Below are positions 52,969-63,230 of a DNA stretch of 64,000 bases, one piece after another. Position 1 is the first letter of the stretch; every line of letters starts with the position of its first letter. Origin of the DNA: Bacteroidota bacterium. GTDB lineage: Bacteria; Bacteroidota; Bacteroidia; AKYH767-A; JABDAW01. A model generated the notes under the pieces. That model had not been told where the DNA came from and did no database searches. It saw only the letters and a program-made list of their open reading frames with translations. Position numbers and translations under genes: made by a program. The DNA is taken from contig JABDAW010000002.1 of NCBI GenBank assembly GCA_013288905.1, positions 3,265-67,264 on the forward strand, given 5' to 3'.

Positions 52969-53002
52969 AAAAAAAAGCGGCACAATCTGTACCGCTTTTT
53001 TT
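52969..53002. terminator. Bidirectional rho-independent terminator (A-run, gcggcac..gtaccgc hairpin, T-run) between convergent genes
   Basis: aaaaaaaagcggcacaatctgtaccgcttttttt. Confidence 0.5.
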
Positions 53003-53023: not shown

Positions 53024-55213
53024 CTATAAATCATCAATTGCTGTAGAGGCGTCTCTATCGGCTTCAACATCATGGATTAGCGTACTCATATCTTTCCCAA
53101 AAGAATAAATTTCTCCAAGAGTTGCCGACTTCTTGAAGTGATGCTTAATACCTAATCGTTGTGCCAACAGATTTGCATCTAATTCATTCAATGCCTTAAA
53201 TTCTTTTCTGGCAATCAATCGACCAGGGCGAAGCAGCGCGCTATCCAATTTCTTTAAATCAACATTAAACGTACAGATTATTTGAAGATTCAACATATCA
53301 TTCAAGAGACCGTCTGTCATATTCAAAAGGTTCGTGACACCTTGAATTCTAATTCCTTCCTGACGTTTCGCAAGCAAGGGTTCGGCATCTTCTATTAATA
53401 AAACGCAGAAATATCCTTGTCGAGAATAATGCTCAACTTGTGTGGAAACAAAAGTCATGAAGCCAGGCTCAACAAGATGATCAACCATATTAGGAGGCAT
53501 ATAGATAACGATCTTTTTATTATTCGCCATACTTCTTAATAAGTGTCTGATATAATATGTTTTCCCTGTTCCAGGCTCTCCATGAAATAAAACCAAACCT
53601 TTGCTCTCATTTAGAAATCGTTCCATCAATTCATTATGAAACTTCGCAAAGCCATTGCCATAGTTCAAGTCCAGATCCTTTATTTCAAAGTTATCTTCGA
53701 CAGCATGAGATTTTAGATAGAAGTTTTGACTGTATTGAATCATATAAATCTTTGGCTTGTCTGGAATCCTTTCCAAAGAACACATTGACATTATTCTTTC
53801 TAACTGTCGTTCAAAAACCTTATCTCGCTTACCAGAACCATCACTTGGACGCAACAAAACTATATTGCTGGTATAAACACCTGAATATTCATAACGAATG
53901 ATTTGCCGGATATAATCCGGCACATCATATTCTCCACTATCTTCATGTGAAATCTGGGTAGCTTGCAATACATACCCGACATTAGGAAATCCCAAAGTAT
54001 ATTTCGTTAATCGCTCTCCTTCAAAATCATATTTCTCACTACAAGTATGAAGTTCCTTTGCGCCCATCGTCTCTTTTAATTCTCTCATCAAAGCTATAGC
54101 CTCAATTCGATCCCCCGAAAAGGTAATAATGGATGGGGATTGATTGTTCTTAAGAACATAATATCGTGGTGCAGAGAATATATCTGGAGTAGGGCTTGCC
54201 TCTTGCAACCACCGTGCTAATGCTGGTTCCAATTCTCCAGCCGCTAACTCTATTGCAGGAGCAACACCTGTCTTCAAATCTTCTGTTGAATTGTTATTTA
54301 CTGATGTTTCAATCTCCTCAACAATACTCAAATACTCTTTAAATGGTGGTTGTTCTCCATAATAAACGATTTCTCGAACCCATACATTTATCATTTCGTT
54401 TTTATAGTATTTCCATTTCTCAATCCAATTACCAAAAGCATCGCGCTCCCAGGCATTCTCTTCAAATTCTTTACTTCGTCTTGCAACTTCTTTCTGTATT
54501 ATCCTATCTCCATTTTCATCATATTCATCATAACACATATATCTGTTATCCAGACTGCCATCTTCCTTATAAACGGTTATTTCCACAGGATGTCCTTTGT
54601 GATTATTTTTATAAACGCTTCTCCGTTTAATCATCCCTATACCATCTTCCATTAAGTCTTCAATCTTAAAACCATTGTCATCATAGATAATTGTAGACTT
54701 ACCATAAACCACACCGCCCATATATGAAATATGACCTAAGCTATCCCCTTTCTCATTCCGCAAGTATTCAGTGCTATTGGTTTCTATTCCATCTTTATTA
54801 AGTGAACGAGTCACTGATAATTGATCTTTATCATCATAAATATATTCATGAGTACTTGTGATGTTTCCTTCCTTATCATGGCTTATCATCGCAGTATATT
54901 TTCCATTTTCATTATAAACTACTTTGAGAATCGTTTCTTCTTTTGTAAAAATATCCCGCCCAGTCATTTTACCAAGTTCATTATAGAAAGTAATATTATT
55001 TGTTTCCACACCAATCAATTCTTCCCTTTTTCCACGAATAATCTTATCTCCTTGATTATAGGCTTTATGATAAGTTTCTTTAACTGATTTAACGGCTCCC
55101 TTCATGTCATTTAATTCAACATCAGTAGGAGTATTAGGAACCACCTTCATTTCCACTTCCTTATCAGCCGCTTTAATTTCTTTTTTCTTTGCCATAATTA
55201 ATATATATTTCAA
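53024..55213 (-). CDS. Paralog B of a tandem pair: N-terminal YD/MORN-like beta-repeat region fused to a C-terminal classical AAA+ ATPase
   Basis: Walker A GEPGTGKT, Walker B LLIEDAEPL, sensor-1 TFN, Arg finger LLRPGRL. N-terminal repeats of the type ..YIYDDKDQL.., ..IIYDDNGFKIE.., ..YDEYDENGDRI... Likely true start MAKKKEIKAADKEVE. Confidence 0.6.
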   Translation of the reverse strand: MKYILIMAKKKEIKAADKEVEMKVVPNTPTDVELNDMKGAVKSVKETYHKAYNQGDKIIRGKREELIGVETNNITFYNELGKMTGRDIFTKEETILKVVYNENGKYTAMISHDKEGNITSTHEYIYDDKDQLSVTRSLNKDGIETNSTEYLRNEKGDSLGHISYMGGVVYGKSTIIYDDNGFKIEDLMEDGIGMIKRRSVYKNNHKGHPVEITVYKEDGSLDNRYMCYDEYDENGDRIIQKEVARRSKEFEENAWERDAFGNWIEKWKYYKNEMINVWVREIVYYGEQPPFKEYLSIVEEIETSVNNNSTEDLKTGVAPAIELAAGELEPALARWLQEASPTPDIFSAPRYYVLKNNQSPSIITFSGDRIEAIALMRELKETMGAKELHTCSEKYDFEGERLTKYTLGFPNVGYVLQATQISHEDSGEYDVPDYIRQIIRYEYSGVYTSNIVLLRPSDGSGKRDKVFERQLERIMSMCSLERIPDKPKIYMIQYSQNFYLKSHAVEDNFEIKDLDLNYGNGFAKFHNELMERFLNESKGLVLFHGEPGTGKTYYIRHLLRSMANNKKIVIYMPPNMVDHLVEPGFMTFVSTQVEHYSRQGYFCVLLIEDAEPLLAKRQEGIRIQGVTNLLNMTDGLLNDMLNLQIICTFNVDLKKLDSALLRPGRLIARKEFKALNELDANLLAQRLGIKHHFKKSATLGEIYSFGKDMSTLIHDVEADRDASTAIDDL

Positions 55214-57336
55214 TCCACATCATGAATCAGAGTACTCTTGTTTGTTGCCTTCGCATAGATTTCAGCAAGGGTGGCTGCTCCGGTGAAATGATGTTTGATC
55301 CCCAAGCGTGATGCCAACAGATTCGCCTCAAATTCAGGTAGTGCTTTGAACTCCTTACGCGCAAGTAATCTCCCTGGTCGCAGCAAGGCTTTATCGAGCT
55401 TGCTTACTTTGACATTGAATGTGCAGATGATTTGAAGATTCAGCATATCGTTAAGCAATCCATCAGTCATATTAAGAAGATTGGAAACGCCTTGTATCCT
55501 TGTATCCGATGAACGCGAAGCCAGCAGTGGCTCTGCATCTTCTATCAGCAATACACAGAAATTATCATCTTGAGAAAACTGTTGTACTTCTCGAGAGATG
55601 AAAGACATGAATTGTGGTTCGACCATATAATCAACCATGTTAGGAGGCATATAGATAACTATCTTATTCTTGTTCGCCATAGAGCGAAGGAGATGACGGA
55701 TATAGAATGTCTTCCCCGTGCCCGGCTCACCATGAAACAACACCAAGCCTTTATTTTCATTCTCAAAACGACCCATCAATTCATCATGGAAATCTTCAAA
55801 GCCATGTCCATAATTCAAGCTCAAGTCCTTGATTTCAAAATCAGCGTTCACATCATGCCCCTCCAAAGAATAGCTGCCTGCGCCATTTACTTGCACCATA
55901 TATATCTGTGGCTTCTCGGGTTTTTCATAGAGTTTGCACATATCTATCAAACTCTTTATTTCTTCTTCAAAAACCATATCCCTTTTACAGGAATCATTGC
56001 TTGGATGATACATAATCAACTGGCTGGTATGAATATAATTGTAATCATACTCCGGCGCCTGTCTAAGAAAATCGGGAATGTAGAAAAGTTCCGCATCACG
56101 TTGCTGAATCTGAAACGCACTCAACAAATATTTCCCGTCAAGAAAGCTCAAAGTATAACGAATCATCTTAGTATTATGAGAATTCTCGCTATCCATAGCA
56201 TAAGAGTTAATGATTCGACCGCCCAGCTTATCAATCAAATGCATCTTTAAACCAAAAGCATCGCAATCATGACCGGCGTATGAATATTGTGATGGAAACT
56301 CCTTATTCTTCAAAACATAATACCGCAACACAGGGAACTGCTCTTGCACACTTCCTTCAGTCATCCACTTGTTCTGCTCCTCATTCATAAAAGTTGGCTG
56401 ATATTCCTTTTCTTTTGCTTCATCAACTTTCGCTTGCGTGGCAAAAATGTCAGTTGGTATTTCCAAGGTTTTCTTTTTTGATGCATCATCATAATAAGTG
56501 ATGTCACGAATGATAATATTCATCGCCACTGTCTTGAAATAGATGGTCTTCTTCACCCAATTACCGTGGCTATCCAGTTCCTTTACATCCTTAAATCTCC
56601 ATTGCAGAAAAGTATTCCCATCAGGTTCGGCAGAGACCTTCTTGCCAAGATGATTAATCTTGTATTTCGGGATTTCAATCTCTGTAATTTTACCATTGGC
56701 ATCATACTCTTTCTTTTCAAGGATATTTGATTCGTCATCATACAACCAAACCCACCGATGCTGCAAAACTTCTGCTTCATTATAATTGTAATGATCATAT
56801 AGATGCGTGTTGTCCTCATTATAGGTCATGAAGGTTTGCCCCGTCATCTTACCCTCTGCATTATAGGTTTTAGAACCAATGCGCTTACCTTGCTTGTCAT
56901 TGGTAAAATACGCTCTATTCAAGACTCTCCCGTCTGCATATATTAATGAGCTTTCTATCTCGAAGCCATTCTTATCGAAGATATGATCACTGATAAAATT
57001 CTCTGTACCATCCTTATTATAATGGATGCTTTTTGAATGGCTACCTTTTTCATTAAACAGTAGCGTATGATTCTCGCCAGTAATCTTAAAACCATAAAAT
57101 TCCCTTCTAATTCCGTTCTCATCAAAGTTCGACAACCCATTATGGTCATCATCAAGATAATCCATGATAGCACCCGGAACCACCTCACCATTCACCTTAG
57201 TTGCCTTATGAATTGTTAGCTTCATCTGCTTCACTTTGCCTGTTAATTCAAGTCTTTCCATAACGGTCTTCTCCTTCTTAACCTCTACTTTTTCAACTTC
57301 CTTAGTAGCTGCTTTACTTTCTTTTTTCTTTGCCAT
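55210..57336 (-). CDS. Paralog A: N-terminal YD/MORN-like repeat region plus C-terminal AAA+ ATPase
   Basis: Same AAA motifs (GEPGTGKTFYIRHLLRSMANK..LLIEDAEPLL..ICTFNV..LLRPGRLLARKEFKAL). Starts MAKKKESKAATKEVE. Its stop overlaps the start of paralog B by 4 nt. Confidence 0.6.
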   Translation of the reverse strand: MAKKKESKAATKEVEKVEVKKEKTVMERLELTGKVKQMKLTIHKATKVNGEVVPGAIMDYLDDDHNGLSNFDENGIRREFYGFKITGENHTLLFNEKGSHSKSIHYNKDGTENFISDHIFDKNGFEIESSLIYADGRVLNRAYFTNDKQGKRIGSKTYNAEGKMTGQTFMTYNEDNTHLYDHYNYNEAEVLQHRWVWLYDDESNILEKKEYDANGKITEIEIPKYKINHLGKKVSAEPDGNTFLQWRFKDVKELDSHGNWVKKTIYFKTVAMNIIIRDITYYDDASKKKTLEIPTDIFATQAKVDEAKEKEYQPTFMNEEQNKWMTEGSVQEQFPVLRYYVLKNKEFPSQYSYAGHDCDAFGLKMHLIDKLGGRIINSYAMDSENSHNTKMIRYTLSFLDGKYLLSAFQIQQRDAELFYIPDFLRQAPEYDYNYIHTSQLIMYHPSNDSCKRDMVFEEEIKSLIDMCKLYEKPEKPQIYMVQVNGAGSYSLEGHDVNADFEIKDLSLNYGHGFEDFHDELMGRFENENKGLVLFHGEPGTGKTFYIRHLLRSMANKNKIVIYMPPNMVDYMVEPQFMSFISREVQQFSQDDNFCVLLIEDAEPLLASRSSDTRIQGVSNLLNMTDGLLNDMLNLQIICTFNVKVSKLDKALLRPGRLLARKEFKALPEFEANLLASRLGIKHHFTGAATLAEIYAKATNKSTLIHDVD

Positions 57337-57386
57337 ATTTATAATTTATAATTCAACATTTATAATTCTATCCACTAAACCACCGG

Positions 57387-58352
57387 CTATGCTCTCACCA
57401 AATGAATTGTTACCGATACATCTTCGCCAGCCGTGATGGGGCAGGCTACATGTCCCGGAACAGCTCCCGTCATTTCATAAATAATAAACAAATCTTCACC
57501 CGTCTGTGTCGTGTCCAAAATCAGCACTGCATGGGCATTAGCAATACCTTTAACACCTTGCACAGATTCCTTTCCTTCAGAAGTTTCCAACTTGGCGATT
57601 CTGCCATGAGCTCCCGGCACTATGCCTGTACCATCCGCCCAAACAAAGAGAATATCAACCTCCGTTTCTACCTTCAGAATCCTGTATTTTATCCCCCAAA
57701 GACCGCAATAAACTCGCATAGCAGGCTCTGCATAATCTACTACATGAAACTGAACTTCCTTGCGAATAGTAATCAGCAAAGTCTTACAAATCTTTTGACG
57801 AATAGCTACAGTAGTTGCTTTTCCAATAAAATCTTCGGTTGCTTCATTCGCTGCTGATGATTTTGCTACCAAATCAATATTCAACAGATCGTTTTGAGCA
57901 GCAGTAAAATCCAAGGGAGGTGTCTTTCCTGCTGCAATCAAGACTAAATTAGCTGATTTAATATGGTCTGAAACATTTAAAACCTGCGCTCGGGTAATCA
58001 TTTCAGGAAGATCAGGAGAACCAACAAGCATCAACAAATTGGTCCTTATAGATGCATCATAAGTACCATATTTAATATGACCATTGACGATGCCGATATA
58101 GAGCACGTTATGCTCTCTCAATTCTTTCTCCGCAGTATCGGCAATACTGTTCAGATGCACTTTATTGCCCTCCGCAGTATCCATAATGGATACTAAATTT
58201 GGGAAATCGGCCCAATTAAACTCCAAATCAATGTCGGTTTGGGTCTTTAAAAATCTATCTCCTACTAAAATAGATTGTTGTTTTGTTCTGGCGGCTGATA
58301 AGCCTTCCACGATTTGTCGGACGCTTTTCGGGATTTCTACTACTTCACTCAT
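57387..58352 (-). CDS. Hypothetical 321-aa protein, first gene of the AAA+ cassette
   Basis: Clean ORF 50 bp upstream of the first AAA gene. No recognisable motif. Confidence 0.5.
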   Translation of the reverse strand: MSEVVEIPKSVRQIVEGLSAARTKQQSILVGDRFLKTQTDIDLEFNWADFPNLVSIMDTAEGNKVHLNSIADTAEKELREHNVLYIGIVNGHIKYGTYDASIRTNLLMLVGSPDLPEMITRAQVLNVSDHIKSANLVLIAAGKTPPLDFTAAQNDLLNIDLVAKSSAANEATEDFIGKATTVAIRQKICKTLLITIRKEVQFHVVDYAEPAMRVYCGLWGIKYRILKVETEVDILFVWADGTGIVPGAHGRIAKLETSEGKESVQGVKGIANAHAVLILDTTQTGEDLFIIYEMTGAVPGHVACPITAGEDVSVTIHLVRA

Positions 58353-58458
58353 AATTTATATATATTTTAATTGTTTATTATTTAATTTGATGGTTTATTA
58401 TTTTATTAAAATAATATCTATACATGAATAGATATTCTTACGAAATAAAAAAGAAGCC

Positions 58459-58514
58459 CTTTTCGAGTTAGCTTCGCCCAAAAAAACGTTTTTTTGGGCG
58501 AAGCTAACTCGAAA
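58459..58514. repeat. Perfect ~50-bp palindrome (cgagttagcttcgcccaaaaaaacg|tttttttgggcgaagctaactcg)
   Basis: Direct reading. Lies ~110 bp upstream of the cassette start. Confidence 0.85.
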
Positions 58515-58943
58515 CATTGGAGAAAATTCAACCAAACGCCGAAAGCTCTTCCTATACATTTTAATAAATTCAGTCGTCAGAATAAAGCTAAGTGTGTACA
58601 TTGCTACTTTTGGGGAAGTTTTGGGAAAGCTTACCCTGTATGCCTCATAAATTTTTGAGAATCTAATTTTAGAAAAGGGAATAAAGGGACGATATGTTCG
58701 TAGCACGCTCATGTGTAGGTTCTGTGAATATATTTATTTGGCGTGCTATGTAAAGTTTAAAAACTTATTGAATCATAAAATCTATCTGCTTTCTTATGTT
58801 GTTATTTTCTATTCGAGGGCGCTAAATAACAAAAATTAATCGAGAACAACAAAACGGATAAAAGATTAAAGTCTAAATATGACCTTAATGATTCTCAACA
58901 ACTCCGTTTCTAAATAGAAACTATTTCAAATAAAGGAAGGACT

Positions 58944-59309
58944 CTATTTCAATTTCTTTTTCTGAACCTGGTATTCCACTTCTACCTCCTCAAAAATCTC
59001 ATTGCAAACATTCTCGATAGTGGCAACCATCTCAGGAAGTTCCTCAAGATGTTCCTTCTTATATGAATAATCCATGATGCTCTTCAGCATGTCGCGATAT
59101 TCCTCAGACATGCCGACGATGCGCAGTGAGGAAGCTATCTTGTGCGTGGCTTCAAACAAATTATCCCAGTCTTTCTTTGCAGTACATTCACTCATTCTTT
59201 TGACTATCGGCGGGGTGATGTCAAGGAATGATTTCAGTATATCTACAAGGAATTTCTGATCTCCGTCTGCCTGGTTGATTAAGGTATCGAGGTTGCTAAA
59301 TTTAGCCAT
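58944..59309 (-). CDS. Histidine phosphotransfer (Hpt) domain protein
   Basis: Hpt four-helix signature around the phosphorylatable His (ATHKIASSLRIVGM). Immediately downstream of the hybrid kinase. Confidence 0.65.
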   Translation of the reverse strand: MAKFSNLDTLINQADGDQKFLVDILKSFLDITPPIVKRMSECTAKKDWDNLFEATHKIASSLRIVGMSEEYRDMLKSIMDYSYKKEHLEELPEMVATIENVCNEIFEEVEVEYQVQKKKLK

Positions 59310-59321
59310 GCCATGCGCCGA

Positions 59322-62300
59322 TTAATTCGGACTGTGAATACTATGATTGCTTACTAATGTAATGATCTTTTTATACAGAATGTTTTCATCAACAGGCTTT
59401 GCCACGTAGTCATTCATGCCATCCTCCTTACATTTGTCAAAATCCATGTTGGTAACGTCTGCTGTCAATGCAATGATGGGCACTTGCGATTTTGGCGAAG
59501 GCATCTCATTACGGATGATTTTTGTGGCTTCGTATCCATCCATTTCAGGCATGTGAAGATCCATCAACACCAGATCAAAATGATTCTCCTTAATCTTCTC
59601 TATCGCTATCTTTCCATTCTCAGCAACATCTTGCTGGCAGCCTAAGTCATGCAATAATTTCTTTATCAATAGCTGGTTGAATTCATTATCTTCGACCACC
59701 AGGATATTAATATTCTTCATCTCGAACTCCAAGTATTCTTCCTCCTTGATCTTCTCTTCCATGTCAGTAATATCACCCTTTTTGAAGGTCAGAACAAAGC
59801 TAAATGTGGAGCCTTCATCCAACTTACTTTCCAGCTTAATAGTACCGCCCTGCGCCTCCACCAATTGTTTCACAATGGCAAGCCCCAAACCGGTTCCGCC
59901 ATAAGTTCTCGATGTAGAACTTGATGCCTGCTGGAACTTCTCAAAGATAGTCTCCAGCTTATCTTCCGGTATTCCGATGCCGGTATCCTTCACATAGAAT
60001 TCTATCGAAACATAGTCATTTACTTCCTTCAATAAGTGAATGCCGACCGTTATCTTTCCTTTGGAAGTAAACTTAACGGCGTTGCTGATAAGGTTTAAAA
60101 TAATCTGATGAAGCCTCATCGGATCGCCGATTACTATTTCCGGAATTCTGGAATCAAAAACTTTTATCAGCTTCAAATGCTTCTCCTCAATCTTATTCTC
60201 ATACAACAGCATCATTGTGGAAATGGAAGTCTCCAAATCAAATGGAATGCGCTCGAATGTCATCTTCCCGGATTCAACTTTTGCGAGGTCAAGAATGTCA
60301 TCAATCAACACCAGCAATGTATCTCCTGATACTTTTATCGCATCAAGATATTGCTTCTGTTTCTCGGTCATCCTGGTTTTCAGAAGCACTTTCGTGAAGC
60401 CAATAATTGCATTCATCGGGGTCCTGATCTCATGACTCATATTCGACAAGAACTGTTGCTTGGCTCTTGCAGCTTCTTCAGCTCTGTGCAATTCAGTTAT
60501 CGTTTCGATACGTTCTGTAATATCCTGGTTAGTGCCAGCCAGCTTGATCACTTCGCCTTTGTCATCCAGGTAAACTTCGCCAAGCGTATTCAATACCTTC
60601 ACCTCATTATTCCAGGTCTTGATGCGGTAATCGAAGTTAAATGATTTCTTTTCTTTAATGGCATTTGCCATAGTATTCCGAATAATATCGCGGTCCACTT
60701 CATAATTAAACTGCGCCAAATGATCACTGGTCAATGGCACTTCGCCAGGCTCGAAACCATATATCTTATACAACTGATCAGACCATGTTATTGCTCCTGT
60801 CTTGACATCAACTTCCCAGTTTCCCATCTTCGACAACTCCTGCGCTTCCTTCAATTGCTTGATAGATGCGTTGATCTTTTCTTCTGCAAACTTCCGCTCG
60901 GTGACATCCTGAACAGAACAGGAAATCTTTTCCCCATCACCCTTATCATCCGTAGCGACTTCGCCTACTACATAAAGATATTTCAATGCTCCATACCTGT
61001 CATTAATACGAATATCAAAATTGAAAGATGCTTTTTCAGCAACAGCTTTCTCATAGATTTCATTTGACATCTTTCTATCTTCAGGATGAATATAATCGTT
61101 TAGCTTTCCATAGAATAAATGAATCTCATGAGGCTCGAAACCATAGATGCGAAGAAGCTCGTCGGAGTAGCTGGGTTTCTTTGTTTTCAAATCCATTTCC
61201 CAACTGCCGATATGCGCCAACTCCTGCGAATCGGATAATTGCTTAACGGTTTCACTTAGTTTTTCCTCTGCCAATTTCCTTCTGGTAATATCCTGTGCCG
61301 CACCGGTAATCTTCAAAGGATTGCCCTTGGCATCCGTCATTACTTCGCACATCACATTCAGGATTTTCAATTCGCCTGCCATATTTGTGATGCGTGTTTC
61401 GTATTGGAATGGCTGCTTATCATCTATCGCATGAACGATATTCATCAGCCTTAATTCCGAATCAATATTCAAGCGATTGAGCTCTTTGAATTGAATCTTC
61501 GTGCCGACTTCCATTCCATAAATCTTATACAATTCGTCAGAGAAAATAATCTCCCTCGTCTTGAAATCCATCTCGAAGTTCCCTATATGAGCGCGTTCCT
61601 GTGCCTGCTGCAATTGATGCAACGTATGATTGAGCTTCTCTTCATTCGCTTTCCGTTGTGTAATATCCTGCGATGAAGCAAACAGGTGAGTTGGATTGCC
61701 ATCCTTATCGCAGATGATTTCGCACATCACATTCATGTCTCGTATCTGTCCTTTCTTGTTGATTATTCGCGTCTCATATTCAAATGGTTCCTTCCTCGCA
61801 ATAGCCTTCTTCAGCAGCTCTCTTCTCCCTTCATCATCGGTATTCATGCTGGCTACTTCATCATAATTAACTACCGAATCTGGCTCCAGCCCAAAGATGC
61901 GATACATCTCATCAGAGAATTTAAGTTCCTTAGTAGCAAGATTTAATTCCGAAGAACCGATATGCGCCCTCGCCTGTGCCAGCTCCAATTGTTTATTAGT
62001 CTTTTGAATCACTTCCTCATTCTTTTTCCTGTCGGTAATATCCTGAACAGTAGCAAACAGGTGTGTCGCATTCCCATTCTCATCGGTAATCACCTCGAAT
62101 ATACTATAATTATATCGCGGAATTCCTTTGGCATTAATTATCAGGGTTTCATATTCAAAAGGTTGCTTATCGGTGAGGAGTTTCTTCATCCTTTCTTCTC
62201 TGCCCTCTTGATTGGTATTCATCATGGCGAGCGTTTCATAATTCAATGGAGAGCCAATCTCCAGCCCGAAGATGCGATACAATTCATCAGAGAATTTCAA

Positions 62301-63230
62301 CTCCTTAGTCTTCAGATCAAATTCCAAAGTGCCGATATGCGCACGCTCCTGCGCTGTCTGAAGATCTTTTAATGTCTTATTTATCCTGTCTTCCGTGGCT
62401 TTCCGTTCGGTAACATCTTTTAATGCGCCATATCTCTTCACCGCGATTCCATTTTCATCAGCCAAAATATTCCCCCACATTTCAAGCACCTTATGTTCGC
62501 CTTTCTCACTGATGATGCGGTATTCGCTATGATAAGGAATCTGTTTTTCGGTAGCATTATTAATCACTTCTTCGAGATGTTTCCTGTCATCAGGATGCAC
62601 ATATTTCGTGTATTCACTCTTAGGCATTGGCGAATCCGGCTCCAAGCCATATATCTTATAAAGCTCATCAGACCAGAAGACTTCGCGGGTTATCAAATTC
62701 GTTTCAAAATTGCCGATATGAGCCAGACGTTGCGCTTCATTCAACTGATTCAGGGTCGTACTCAATTTATCTTCCACCTTCCTCTGGATATTATCGAAGG
62801 TCTGGAACGAAATCTTTCGCATCTCGGTATAAAGCAGATTAATGTCATTAACAATGCCCAATGCCTCCTCCATATCAGTCGCAAATTGAGGAATAAAATG
62901 TTGCATCGCCCTCACCTGGGCAGCATAAACCAGCACCAGATCCATGACCTTGATGTCGCGGTTAGAATACCCTCCCTCCAGCTTATCGGATTCCCAAAGT
63001 AATGAACGTTTCCTGGAATCTTCCAACAGGGTCCCATTTATTATAGGGTCGAATAAATTGGAAATCGTCGTTTTCATACTCATCTGAACCAATTCCTCAT
63101 CGGTATATTTAGGAATTAATTTCATCAACGGCACATCCATCGTTTTGATGACCTCAATCTGGTAGCGGACGAATTCCTCCAGATGTCCTTCCTTCAAAAA
63201 TGCAACGTAATCCTGTAAAGTTCTCTTCAT
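59322..63230 (-). CDS. Hybrid sensor histidine kinase with about nine tandem PAS/PAC domains, HisKA, HATPase_c and a C-terminal receiver domain
   Basis: Repeated PAS cores (..AHIG.(F|W)E.D..T...(F|Y)SDE(L|M)Y(R|K)I(F|Y)G..). H-box LSNMSHEIRTPMNAIIGF. G-boxes (..DTGIGI.., GGTGLGLAI). Receiver ..LVLMDLHMPEMDGYEAT... Confidence 0.85.
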   Translation of the reverse strand: MKRTLQDYVAFLKEGHLEEFVRYQIEVIKTMDVPLMKLIPKYTDEELVQMSMKTTISNLFDPIINGTLLEDSRKRSLLWESDKLEGGYSNRDIKVMDLVLVYAAQVRAMQHFIPQFATDMEEALGIVNDINLLYTEMRKISFQTFDNIQRKVEDKLSTTLNQLNEAQRLAHIGNFETNLITREVFWSDELYKIYGLEPDSPMPKSEYTKYVHPDDRKHLEEVINNATEKQIPYHSEYRIISEKGEHKVLEMWGNILADENGIAVKRYGALKDVTERKATEDRINKTLKDLQTAQERAHIGTLEFDLKTKELKFSDELYRIFGLEIGSPLNYETLAMMNTNQEGREERMKKLLTDKQPFEYETLIINAKGIPRYNYSIFEVITDENGNATHLFATVQDITDRKKNEEVIQKTNKQLELAQARAHIGSSELNLATKELKFSDEMYRIFGLEPDSVVNYDEVASMNTDDEGRRELLKKAIARKEPFEYETRIINKKGQIRDMNVMCEIICDKDGNPTHLFASSQDITQRKANEEKLNHTLHQLQQAQERAHIGNFEMDFKTREIIFSDELYKIYGMEVGTKIQFKELNRLNIDSELRLMNIVHAIDDKQPFQYETRITNMAGELKILNVMCEVMTDAKGNPLKITGAAQDITRRKLAEEKLSETVKQLSDSQELAHIGSWEMDLKTKKPSYSDELLRIYGFEPHEIHLFYGKLNDYIHPEDRKMSNEIYEKAVAEKASFNFDIRINDRYGALKYLYVVGEVATDDKGDGEKISCSVQDVTERKFAEEKINASIKQLKEAQELSKMGNWEVDVKTGAITWSDQLYKIYGFEPGEVPLTSDHLAQFNYEVDRDIIRNTMANAIKEKKSFNFDYRIKTWNNEVKVLNTLGEVYLDDKGEVIKLAGTNQDITERIETITELHRAEEAARAKQQFLSNMSHEIRTPMNAIIGFTKVLLKTRMTEKQKQYLDAIKVSGDTLLVLIDDILDLAKVESGKMTFERIPFDLETSISTMMLLYENKIEEKHLKLIKVFDSRIPEIVIGDPMRLHQIILNLISNAVKFTSKGKITVGIHLLKEVNDYVSIEFYVKDTGIGIPEDKLETIFEKFQQASSSTSRTYGGTGLGLAIVKQLVEAQGGTIKLESKLDEGSTFSFVLTFKKGDITDMEEKIKEEEYLEFEMKNINILVVEDNEFNQLLIKKLLHDLGCQQDVAENGKIAIEKIKENHFDLVLMDLHMPEMDGYEATKIIRNEMPSPKSQVPIIALTADVTNMDFDKCKEDGMNDYVAKPVDENILYKKIITLVSNHSIHSPN

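Follow-up and report, generated by a model that had tools for sequence, protein, structure and literature searches.

Adjacent paralogs of a Bacteroidota AAA+ ATPase family with YD/RHS-type repeat domains, and an apparently unrelated gene upstream of them

The locus and the anatomy of the two ATPases

We analyzed a region of three minus-strand genes in a 64,000-nucleotide stretch of a Bacteroidota bacterium genome (assembly GCA_013288905.1, contig JABDAW010000002.1, positions 3,265 to 67,264), referred to below as the window, with positions counted from its first letter. Two of the genes, A and B, encode adjacent paralogs of a protein family in which a YD/RHS-type repeat domain is joined to a classical AAA+ ATPase module; the third, upstream of them, encodes a protein of 321 amino acids (aa). 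A preliminary description made from the sequence had treated the three genes as one cassette. The open reading frames (ORFs) it listed are present: the 321-aa gene at 58352..57387; gene A, a 708-aa YD-repeat AAA+ ATPase identified by its ORF, a PF00004 match and an AlphaFold2 (AF2) model, at 57336..55210; and gene B, of the same architecture as gene A, at 55195..53024 (723 aa) or, with a TTG start, at 55213..53024 (729 aa). The 4-bp overlap previously reported between A and B arises with the TTG start at 55213 only, whereas with the ATG at 55195 the two genes are separated by a 14-nt spacer. The ATG at 55195, yielding 723 aa and the 14-nt spacer, is most likely the true start, because the MAKKKE leader of gene A and all homologues opens there, and because the database protein P0045, identical to this form of gene B, has 723 aa. 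A sequence identical to gene A was found in public collections as well.

The two ATPases are indeed paralogs, with 41% identity across the full length (E = 2e-171), and both open with the Lys-rich leader MAKKKE(S/I)KAA(T/D)KEVE that had been noticed before; this leader is common to gene A, gene B and their homologues. Gene A was modeled with AF2 as a monomer, using an alignment of 49 family sequences (mean predicted local distance difference test score, pLDDT, of 81). Its leader (aa 1-23, MAKKKESKAATKEVEKVEVKKEK; 57268..57336, minus strand, as are all domains given here) is predicted to be disordered, with a pLDDT of 33-39 for residues 1-19. It is followed by a YD/RHS-like beta-hairpin repeat domain (aa 24-285; 56482..57267) of approximately 20 strands (AF2 E35-E281, pLDDT of approximately 90), a variable, charged and partly helical linker (aa 286-330; 56347..56481; pLDDT 55-71), a family-specific alpha/beta middle domain (aa 331-512; 55801..56346; AF2 strands E349-E495), and a classical-clade AAA module with a short lid (aa 513-708; 55213..55800; residues 513-700 in the model). 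The linker is the least conserved part of the family (17% mean identity), and its length varies in the alignment. In gene B, the repeat domain spans aa 24-282 (54350..55126; 20% identical to that of gene A), the middle domain aa 337-515 (53651..54187; 37% identical), and the AAA module with an acidic tail aa 516-723 (53027..53650; module 74% identical). A hidden Markov model (HMM) of the N-domain covers the repeat domains of both window ORFs end to end. The repeats had been thought to extend over approximately 450 aa; the AF2 model limits them to approximately aa 24-285 (about 260 aa) and places a separate alpha/beta middle domain at approximately 331-512.

The acidic C-terminal tail of gene B (VEADRDASTAIDDL) is of a type common to most family members, whereas proteins of the gene A clade have no tail and stop directly after LIHDVD. 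Most bacterial YD-AAA proteins end in ...DAST-x-IDDL(L/I) (53027-53080 in the window). At the other end of the genes, an A-rich leader sequence (ATGGCAAAGAAAAAAGAA; 55193-55213 and 57319-57336) is preserved at the DNA level in both paralogs, and the share of identical A/B residues using the same codon is 86% in aa 1-23, compared to 42-59% elsewhere. This conservation may be related to translation initiation or to a recombination anchor.

The AAA module is complete, as had been claimed, with Walker A (GEPGTGKT), Walker B (LLIEDAE), sensor-1 (TFN) and the second region of homology (SRH; LLRPGRL). Its match to PF00004 is well above the gathering cutoff of 21.2 bits in gene A (46.2 bits, E = 7.7e-12) and in gene B (40.8 bits, E = 3.6e-10), and PF00004 is the only model that passes Pfam thresholds in either protein. 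Residues G536, P538, G539, G541, K542, T543, E599, D600, N641, R653 and R656 are invariant in the 49 family sequences. The order of the acidic pair in Walker B is E-D, and pore loop 1 (positions 570-574, in a register read by hand) is (H/Y)-(L/M)-(V/T)-(E/D)-P, not aromatic-hydrophobic-Gly. By sequence, the nearest solved proteins in the Protein Data Bank (PDB) are Afg2, VAT, Cdc48 and Rpt4 (E = 2e-11 to 1e-7), with at most approximately 16-20% identity between the AAA protein and any solved structure. Comparison of the AAA module gave values of 14.4 for the BCS1 AAA domain (6u1y), 14.3-13.6 for FtsHi, 14.2 for bacterial Trip13, 13.5 for ATAD1 and 13.1 for spastin. The middle domain has no Pfam match, PF08740 (BCS1_N) included. 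Matches in NCBIfam, PADLOC and PHROGs are confined to the AAA core, except for two PHROGs of unassigned function that reach the middle domain; phrog_14322 is matched at E = 2e-20.

YD repeats are normally extracytoplasmic, forming an extracellular shell or an adhesin module. For the repeat domain of the ATPases, the preliminary description had offered a choice of YD/RHS or MORN-variant repeats, and the profile matches and a lipoprotein alignment favor the former. The family profile retrieves proteins bearing PF05593, PF11178 and PF07661, and in the PDB it hits OspA with its single-layer beta-sheet. An exhaustive profile search produced 20,754 matches, many of them to proteins of approximately 280 aa that match in one stretch over profile positions 20-283; these have a signal peptide or a lipobox and are recognized by the RHS_repeat and YD_repeat_2x models (PF05593, TIGR01643). 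For example, aa 31-282 of gene A align end to end with the lipoprotein P0125 (26% identity, E = 5e-17), and the Lys-rich tail of the ATPases occupies the position of the signal peptide of the lipoproteins. The window proteins match no Pfam repeat model: PF05593 and TIGR01643 gave no matches at E <= 0.1, and the MORN/MORN_2 models PF02493/PF07661 gave none either, although a few remote profile matches bear PF07661. One family member, P0052, reaches 24.1 bits against the RHS/YD repeat model (cutoff 22). A closed RHS shell with a toxin is not what is encoded here, as approximately 260 aa and approximately 20 strands are followed by the linker and the ATPase.

None of the curated libraries searched (Pfam, NCBIfam, PADLOC and the function-assigned PHROGs) models a YD plus AAA architecture, and the literature found contains no description of a YD-repeat and AAA fusion or of a bacterial BCS1-like defense. 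This supports the earlier remark that a described family combining such repeats with a C-terminal AAA domain was not known to its author; the architecture is real and well-delimited, and apparently undescribed.

Family distribution and the phage-shared motor

Among GTDB species representatives, at least 117 stretches encoding the family were confirmed by tblastn. The 78 distinct loci listed come from Bacteroidota metagenome-assembled genomes (MAGs), save three "uncultured bacterium" records and one contig binned as Saccharibacteria. A word-indexed search recovered approximately 10 clusters, and an exhaustive search approximately 45-50 full-length representatives at 50% clustering. Most loci contain a single copy, and tandem arrays of two to four copies are found in 24 of 89 loci, so that the tandem duplication pointed out for the window recurs within the family; several tandem pairs appear, judged by tail types, to be independent duplications. 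The highest copy number was found in the Umea1_bin-1585 MAG, with nine copies on four contigs. One of its loci (L015:4164-12118) has four family genes in a row, of which the middle two (419 and 443 aa) have no YD domain.

Mean pairwise identity in the family is 24% for the repeat domain, 34% for the middle domain and 70% for the AAA module; by these values, the YD domain is hypervariable and the AAA module is strongly conserved. Codon use distinguishes between two causes of the AAA similarity of A and B. Only 42% of the identical AAA residues share a codon and synonymous sites are saturated between A and B, so that recent gene conversion is rejected, and the conservation of the module points to purifying selection.

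The partner of gene A varies among relatives. Gene A of the window and the A gene of its relative L011, a locus of the same MAG as L015, are 85%, 86% and 97% identical in the repeat domain, middle domain and AAA module, respectively, whereas the B genes of the two loci are 28%, 41% and 87% identical. Gene B of the window is instead similar to the B gene in L004 and to number four in the L015 array. In L007, an A-type gene stands alone, and no remnant of a B gene was found after it. The conservation gradient, the copy number, the arrays and the replacement of paralogs speak for a dynamic array whose paralogs are interchangeable and against a fixed heteromer; the tandem pair in the window would be one state of such an array. 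An obligate two-ATPase module, with which the pair had been compared initially, does not fit a family in which most loci are single-copy and the neighbor of a conserved A gene has been replaced by another paralog.

The relationship to BCS1, the mitochondrial AAA translocase of the folded Rieske protein, was tested because mouse Bcs1 also has a Walker B of the E-D order (LLEDVD; sequence verified against PDB 6uko). In hhalign, the probability of the match to mouse Bcs1 is 95.8%, with the AAA core aligned only and the middle domain left out. With the threshold relaxed to E = 10, PF08740 still matched neither the window proteins nor any of three further family members and two phage relatives; with both Pfam (at E <= 10) and hhalign negative, a BCS1_N domain in the middle domain is rejected. 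BCS1 has an N-terminal transmembrane anchor and forms a heptameric ring acting on a folded client (PMC11143374). The window proteins have no transmembrane anchor: the N-terminus is Lys-rich and disordered, followed by beta-hairpins, and has no hydrophobic helix. Nor does BCS1 appear in the top 60 matches to PDB sequences. Because the hhalign match is limited to the AAA core, PF08740 is unmatched and a transmembrane segment is absent, membership of the YD-AAA proteins in the BCS1 family is not established.

The middle domain and AAA module together (aa 330-708 of gene A) have relatives in 74 phage records by tblastn. The best match is a 426-aa protein of an uncultured 735-kb megaphage (37% identity over 99% of aa 330-708), followed by PA5oct-like Pseudomonas jumbo phages; the homologue in phage MIJ3 is annotated as "AAA+ ATPase and BCS1 domain protein". 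The phage cores are 35-51% identical to the family. In a Foldseek comparison with viral models, more than 400 alignment columns are shared with phage ATPases, and "BCS1" proteins of giant viruses are also matched. Iyer et al. (2021, PMC7824862) reported BCS1 orthologs across jumbo phages and suggested that they act close to the membrane during virion assembly; the phage relatives of the window core are apparently the same proteins. The core is encoded at 24 loci in IMG/VR, all of which lack a YD domain; because of this, we regard the YD fusion, as far as these sequences go, as a cellular invention on a motor common to large phages.

Almost all of the phage homologues (L092-L115, L089:3887-5167) end in a basic tail with [IVLM]GF, such as ..KIGFK, ..RLGFGK or ..AIGFGNKR; the basic tails of phages and the acidic tails of bacteria look like alternative docking motifs. 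A conserved partner of the phage ATPase was found only in part: a UvdE-like gene precedes it in 7 of 24 viral loci (L093-L108), and a gene for an Hsp20-like small heat-shock protein follows it in 4 of 24.

The shared core raises the possibility that the bacterial genes are remnants or domesticated copies of a "BCS1-like" virion-assembly ATPase, selfish or decaying and of no benefit to the host. The 35-51% identity to jumbo-phage cores and the varying genomic contexts are consistent with such an origin. This explanation is nevertheless highly improbable: the catalytic residues are all invariant across 49 diverged members, the saturated synonymous sites between A and B together with a conserved protein indicate long-term purifying selection, phage structural genes were not found among the immediate neighbors, and none of the viral loci has the YD fusion.

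The 321-aa gene and the genomic neighborhoods

The 321-aa gene is separated from gene A by 50 bp, as had been given. Co-transcription of the trio in this genome is plausible, given the spacers of 50 nt and 14 nt and the absence of an internal terminator. Directly 3' of gene B lies the predicted terminator, an intrinsic-terminator-like hairpin of 15 pairs with a T-run (53002..52970, minus strand), which can presumably serve the convergent gatA gene as well. The upstream palindrome is also real, albeit 54 bp long rather than 50 bp: it is perfect (58461-58514, assigned to no strand; 27+27 nt, no loop, 100% complementary, centre A7C/GT7), occurs once within the window, and separates the 321-aa gene from the Hpt gene upstream. 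It is probably the hairpin terminator of the upstream sensor-kinase/Hpt operon rather than part of the cassette. A program-listed 104-aa ORF spanning it (58398..58712) is probably spurious, and an Rfam scan of the region returned no matches. As read from sequence alone, the upstream operon (58944-63230, minus strand) encodes a hybrid sensor kinase of 1302 aa, in which numerous PAS-like repeats are combined with histidine kinase and receiver domains, then a 121-aa Hpt-like protein.

The 321-aa protein has nine homologues and no family matches in Pfam or NCBIfam. Its AF2 model (pLDDT 88) shows long helical hairpins at aa 11-217 and a transthyretin/CarboxypepD_reg-like beta-sandwich at aa 223-318. 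If the trio were a functional unit, the protein would serve a hetero-oligomer of the A and B ATPases as its dedicated partner, either an adaptor or a substrate. Such a unit is suggested by the single strand, by the spacers of 50 and 14 nt with hairpins at the outer ends only, and by the observation that a tail-bearing paralog follows a tail-less A-type gene in five of six species-level genomes; the arrangement is also identical in two independent assemblies, both of the one organism in which the trio is seen. The comparison of neighborhoods, which had been named beforehand as the check on a conserved three-gene cassette, came out against it. None of the 86 other ATPase loci has the 321-aa gene, and its homologues (L001-L003) lie beside DUF5618 or type IX secretion system (T9SS) cargo genes and never beside this ATPase. 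DNA homology with the closest relative (86%) runs from 3 bp before the gene A ATG to the gene B stop and so does not extend upstream to the 321-aa gene. Furthermore, the partner of A differs among relatives, A-type genes can be alone (L007), and most loci are single-copy. The three-gene operon model is thus largely refuted and has become very unlikely. Because of its absence from the 86 loci, the placement of its homologues and the end of homology at gene A, the 321-aa gene is, on this comparative evidence, a bystander and not part of the ATPase family unit.

We clustered all ORFs within 10 kb of the ATPase genes in the 86 loci. No conserved neighbor gene was found, the largest non-family cluster being present in 7 of 86 loci. 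A divergent family of approximately 221 aa is located directly upstream of the ATPase, on the same strand, in seven loci (L019:388-1050, L033:1107-1802, L041:9218-9883, L042:3239-3901, L055:9069-9734, L066:1130-1792 and L069:8904-9569), and a second upstream family of approximately 200 aa, on the same strand and unrelated to the 321-aa protein, in four (L020, L029, L052 and L023). The ~221-aa family was rejected as a homologue of the 321-aa protein (hhalign probability 0.1%), as were the genes of 332 aa in L007 and 328 aa in L009 upstream of the ATPase, with no similarity in BLASTP. A gatA-anchored synteny search of metagenomes for an empty site yielded best relatives at most 68% identical, with no shared synteny.

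The family has features that would be expected of an anti-phage or conflict system, in which the YD domain would sense an invader protein, the AAA ring, being related to an assembly ATPase of phages, would unfold, sequester or poison that protein or a phage ATPase ring, and arrays would widen the range of targets. The pattern is immune-like: up to nine copies, tandem arrays, a variable domain beside a conserved NTPase, and replacement of paralogs. Genomic context is unconserved even among close relatives, the core is common to jumbo phages, the megaphage included, and some loci lie beside genes of mobile or defense type. In L009 (3275-9224), a Type ISP restriction-modification-like gene, a 365-aa AAA gene, the 328-aa gene and HIRAN are upstream, and UmuD/UmuC/SRAP downstream; in L004 (15467-21548), DUF1848, a 2OG-Fe(II) oxygenase, 2CompART/2CompARG and an SLFN-like helicase are downstream, and an IS1595 transposase upstream. 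The defense reading raised in the preliminary description was checked by Pfam and PADLOC scans of 139 immediate neighbors, compared to 129 neighbors of gatA as a crude control. Association with defense islands was rejected, as no enrichment was found: PADLOC matches of the neighbors (12 models) were not more common than in this crude control, and the neighborhoods lend no support to the defense reading. On the window proteins, PADLOC models match only weakly and in the AAA core only (mad8 and TRIP13, E = 1e-5 to 1e-4). The immediate neighbors are mostly ordinary Bacteroidota genes, such as Por_Secre_tail, histidine kinases and TPR; the window pair itself sits between gatA on one side and the sensor-kinase operon on the other; and the proteins carry no effector domain besides the ATPase. 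We consider a conflict role rather unlikely. Somewhat less likely still is the specific form of a diversifying, Bacteroidota-specific immune-like family on a phage-shared motor, whose swappable YD domains would recognize invader proteins, for example those of the virion, and whose ring, perhaps a mixture of several paralogs, would dismantle or trap them or else join the phage ATPase in one assembly and poison it. If true, it would be a new class of single-gene defense with a classical AAA remodeler as the effector.

The homology of the YD domain, end to end, with exported lipoproteins suggests another role, that of a housekeeping factor for proteostasis or assembly, for example a chaperone for exported YD lipoproteins or for envelope or T9SS cargo, the YD domain pairing with client domains before export. 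Por_Secre_tail is the most common neighbor domain (9 of 139), four viral loci have an Hsp20-like gene behind the phage homologue, and among solved AAA folds chaperones or translocases come nearest. However, no YD-lipoprotein gene was found beside any family locus or within the window, and Por_Secre_tail is a very common domain in Bacteroidota. The distribution is patchy, with variable copy number, environmental MAGs only among the recovered genomes and no conserved genomic position found. We consider a housekeeping role doubtful.

Proposed mechanism and comparison with known systems

What defines an AAA+ machine is the target recognized by its N-terminal domain. A YD recognition domain coupled to an AAA motor is the best reading of the anatomy described above. 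We propose, with a probability of about 0.5, that the window contains two adjacent paralogs of a Bacteroidota-restricted family of soluble AAA+ proteins with YD domains, preceded by an unrelated gene, and that these proteins are likely ring-forming remodelers. Because classical AAA proteins all form rings, the window proteins would, by analogy, assemble into nucleotide-dependent rings. The YD domains, on their flexible linker, would be interchangeable recognition modules delivering a specific target, a protein or something else, to the ring, and ATP hydrolysis would then remodel or displace it. Since pore loop 1 is not aromatic-hydrophobic-Gly, the proteins may act on folded clients instead of threading them. 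Mixed rings of paralogs may form, since the AAA modules of the paralogs are near-identical.

Several points weigh against this proposal. Ring formation, target binding and remodeling are all drawn by analogy, and to our knowledge a cytoplasmic recognition role for YD repeats has no precedent. The AF2 model is that of a monomer and was built on an alignment of 49 sequences. The pore-loop call is a hand comparison with canonical AAA motifs, and AF2 places helices at this site. The short lid subdomain could alter oligomerization, and the AAA module could be conserved for reasons unrelated to co-assembly. With a 50-nt spacer and no terminator in it, the 321-aa gene may also be co-expressed and locally co-opted in this genome.

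A YD/RHS-type domain joined to a classical AAA motor inside the cell is a combination apparently not yet described. The family is unusual in its copy number of up to nine, in a diversifying recognition domain attached to a near-frozen motor, in the exchange of paralogs, and in a motor shared with phages. Identification of the targets would explain a recurrent orphan family of environmental Bacteroidota and probably the phage "BCS1-like" ATPases too, and could provide a naturally modular system of binder and remodeler.

With the classical-clade AAA proteins (Cdc48/p97, Afg2/Drg1, VAT, Rpt/PAN, FtsH, spastin/katanin and Msp1/ATAD1), the window ATPases share PF00004, Walker A, the sensor-1 Asn, an SRH with two arginines (LDxALLRPGR), and an N-terminal domain ahead of the motor. 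They differ in having a single module, a truncated lid, Walker B of E-D rather than D-E order and a noncanonical pore loop 1, and their YD-repeat and middle domains have no counterpart in these families. BCS1 is likewise built of a beta-rich domain near the N-terminus with a single AAA module behind it but, unlike the window ATPases, has no repeat domain. Trip13/Pch2 (Cap6 of CBASS) shares a single classical-type AAA module with an N-terminal recognition domain and acts on folded clients; the N-terminal domains are unrelated, the PADLOC TRIP13 match is weak (E = 1e-4, AAA core only), and no HORMA or CD-NTase genes were found near the family loci.

With the RHS/YD proteins (Tc toxins, Rhs effectors and teneurins) and the small Bacteroidota YD lipoproteins, the shared features are the repeat unit and the G/D/Y pattern. 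The lipoproteins of approximately 280 aa have, in addition, the same opening LKGxVK and closing D-x-x-GNWxK...RExxYY motifs as the YD domain of the ATPases. Unlike these lipoproteins, the window ATPases have no signal peptide or lipobox and are fused to a cytoplasmic ATPase; unlike the RHS shells, their YD domain, with only approximately 10 hairpins, is too small to close into a shell and has neither an RHS core nor a C-terminal toxin.

Human CLPB/SKD3 combines ankyrin repeats with an AAA module (PMC9934407). It and the NLR/STAND sensors follow a design like that of the YD-AAA proteins, a variable repeat module with a conserved oligomerizing NTPase, which does not imply homology: the type of repeat, the domain order and the ATPase clade differ, and the YD-AAA proteins have no effector domain. 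The likeness extends to the mode of evolution, as NLR-like families also combine paralog expansion with a variable recognition domain, as in the YD-AAA family.

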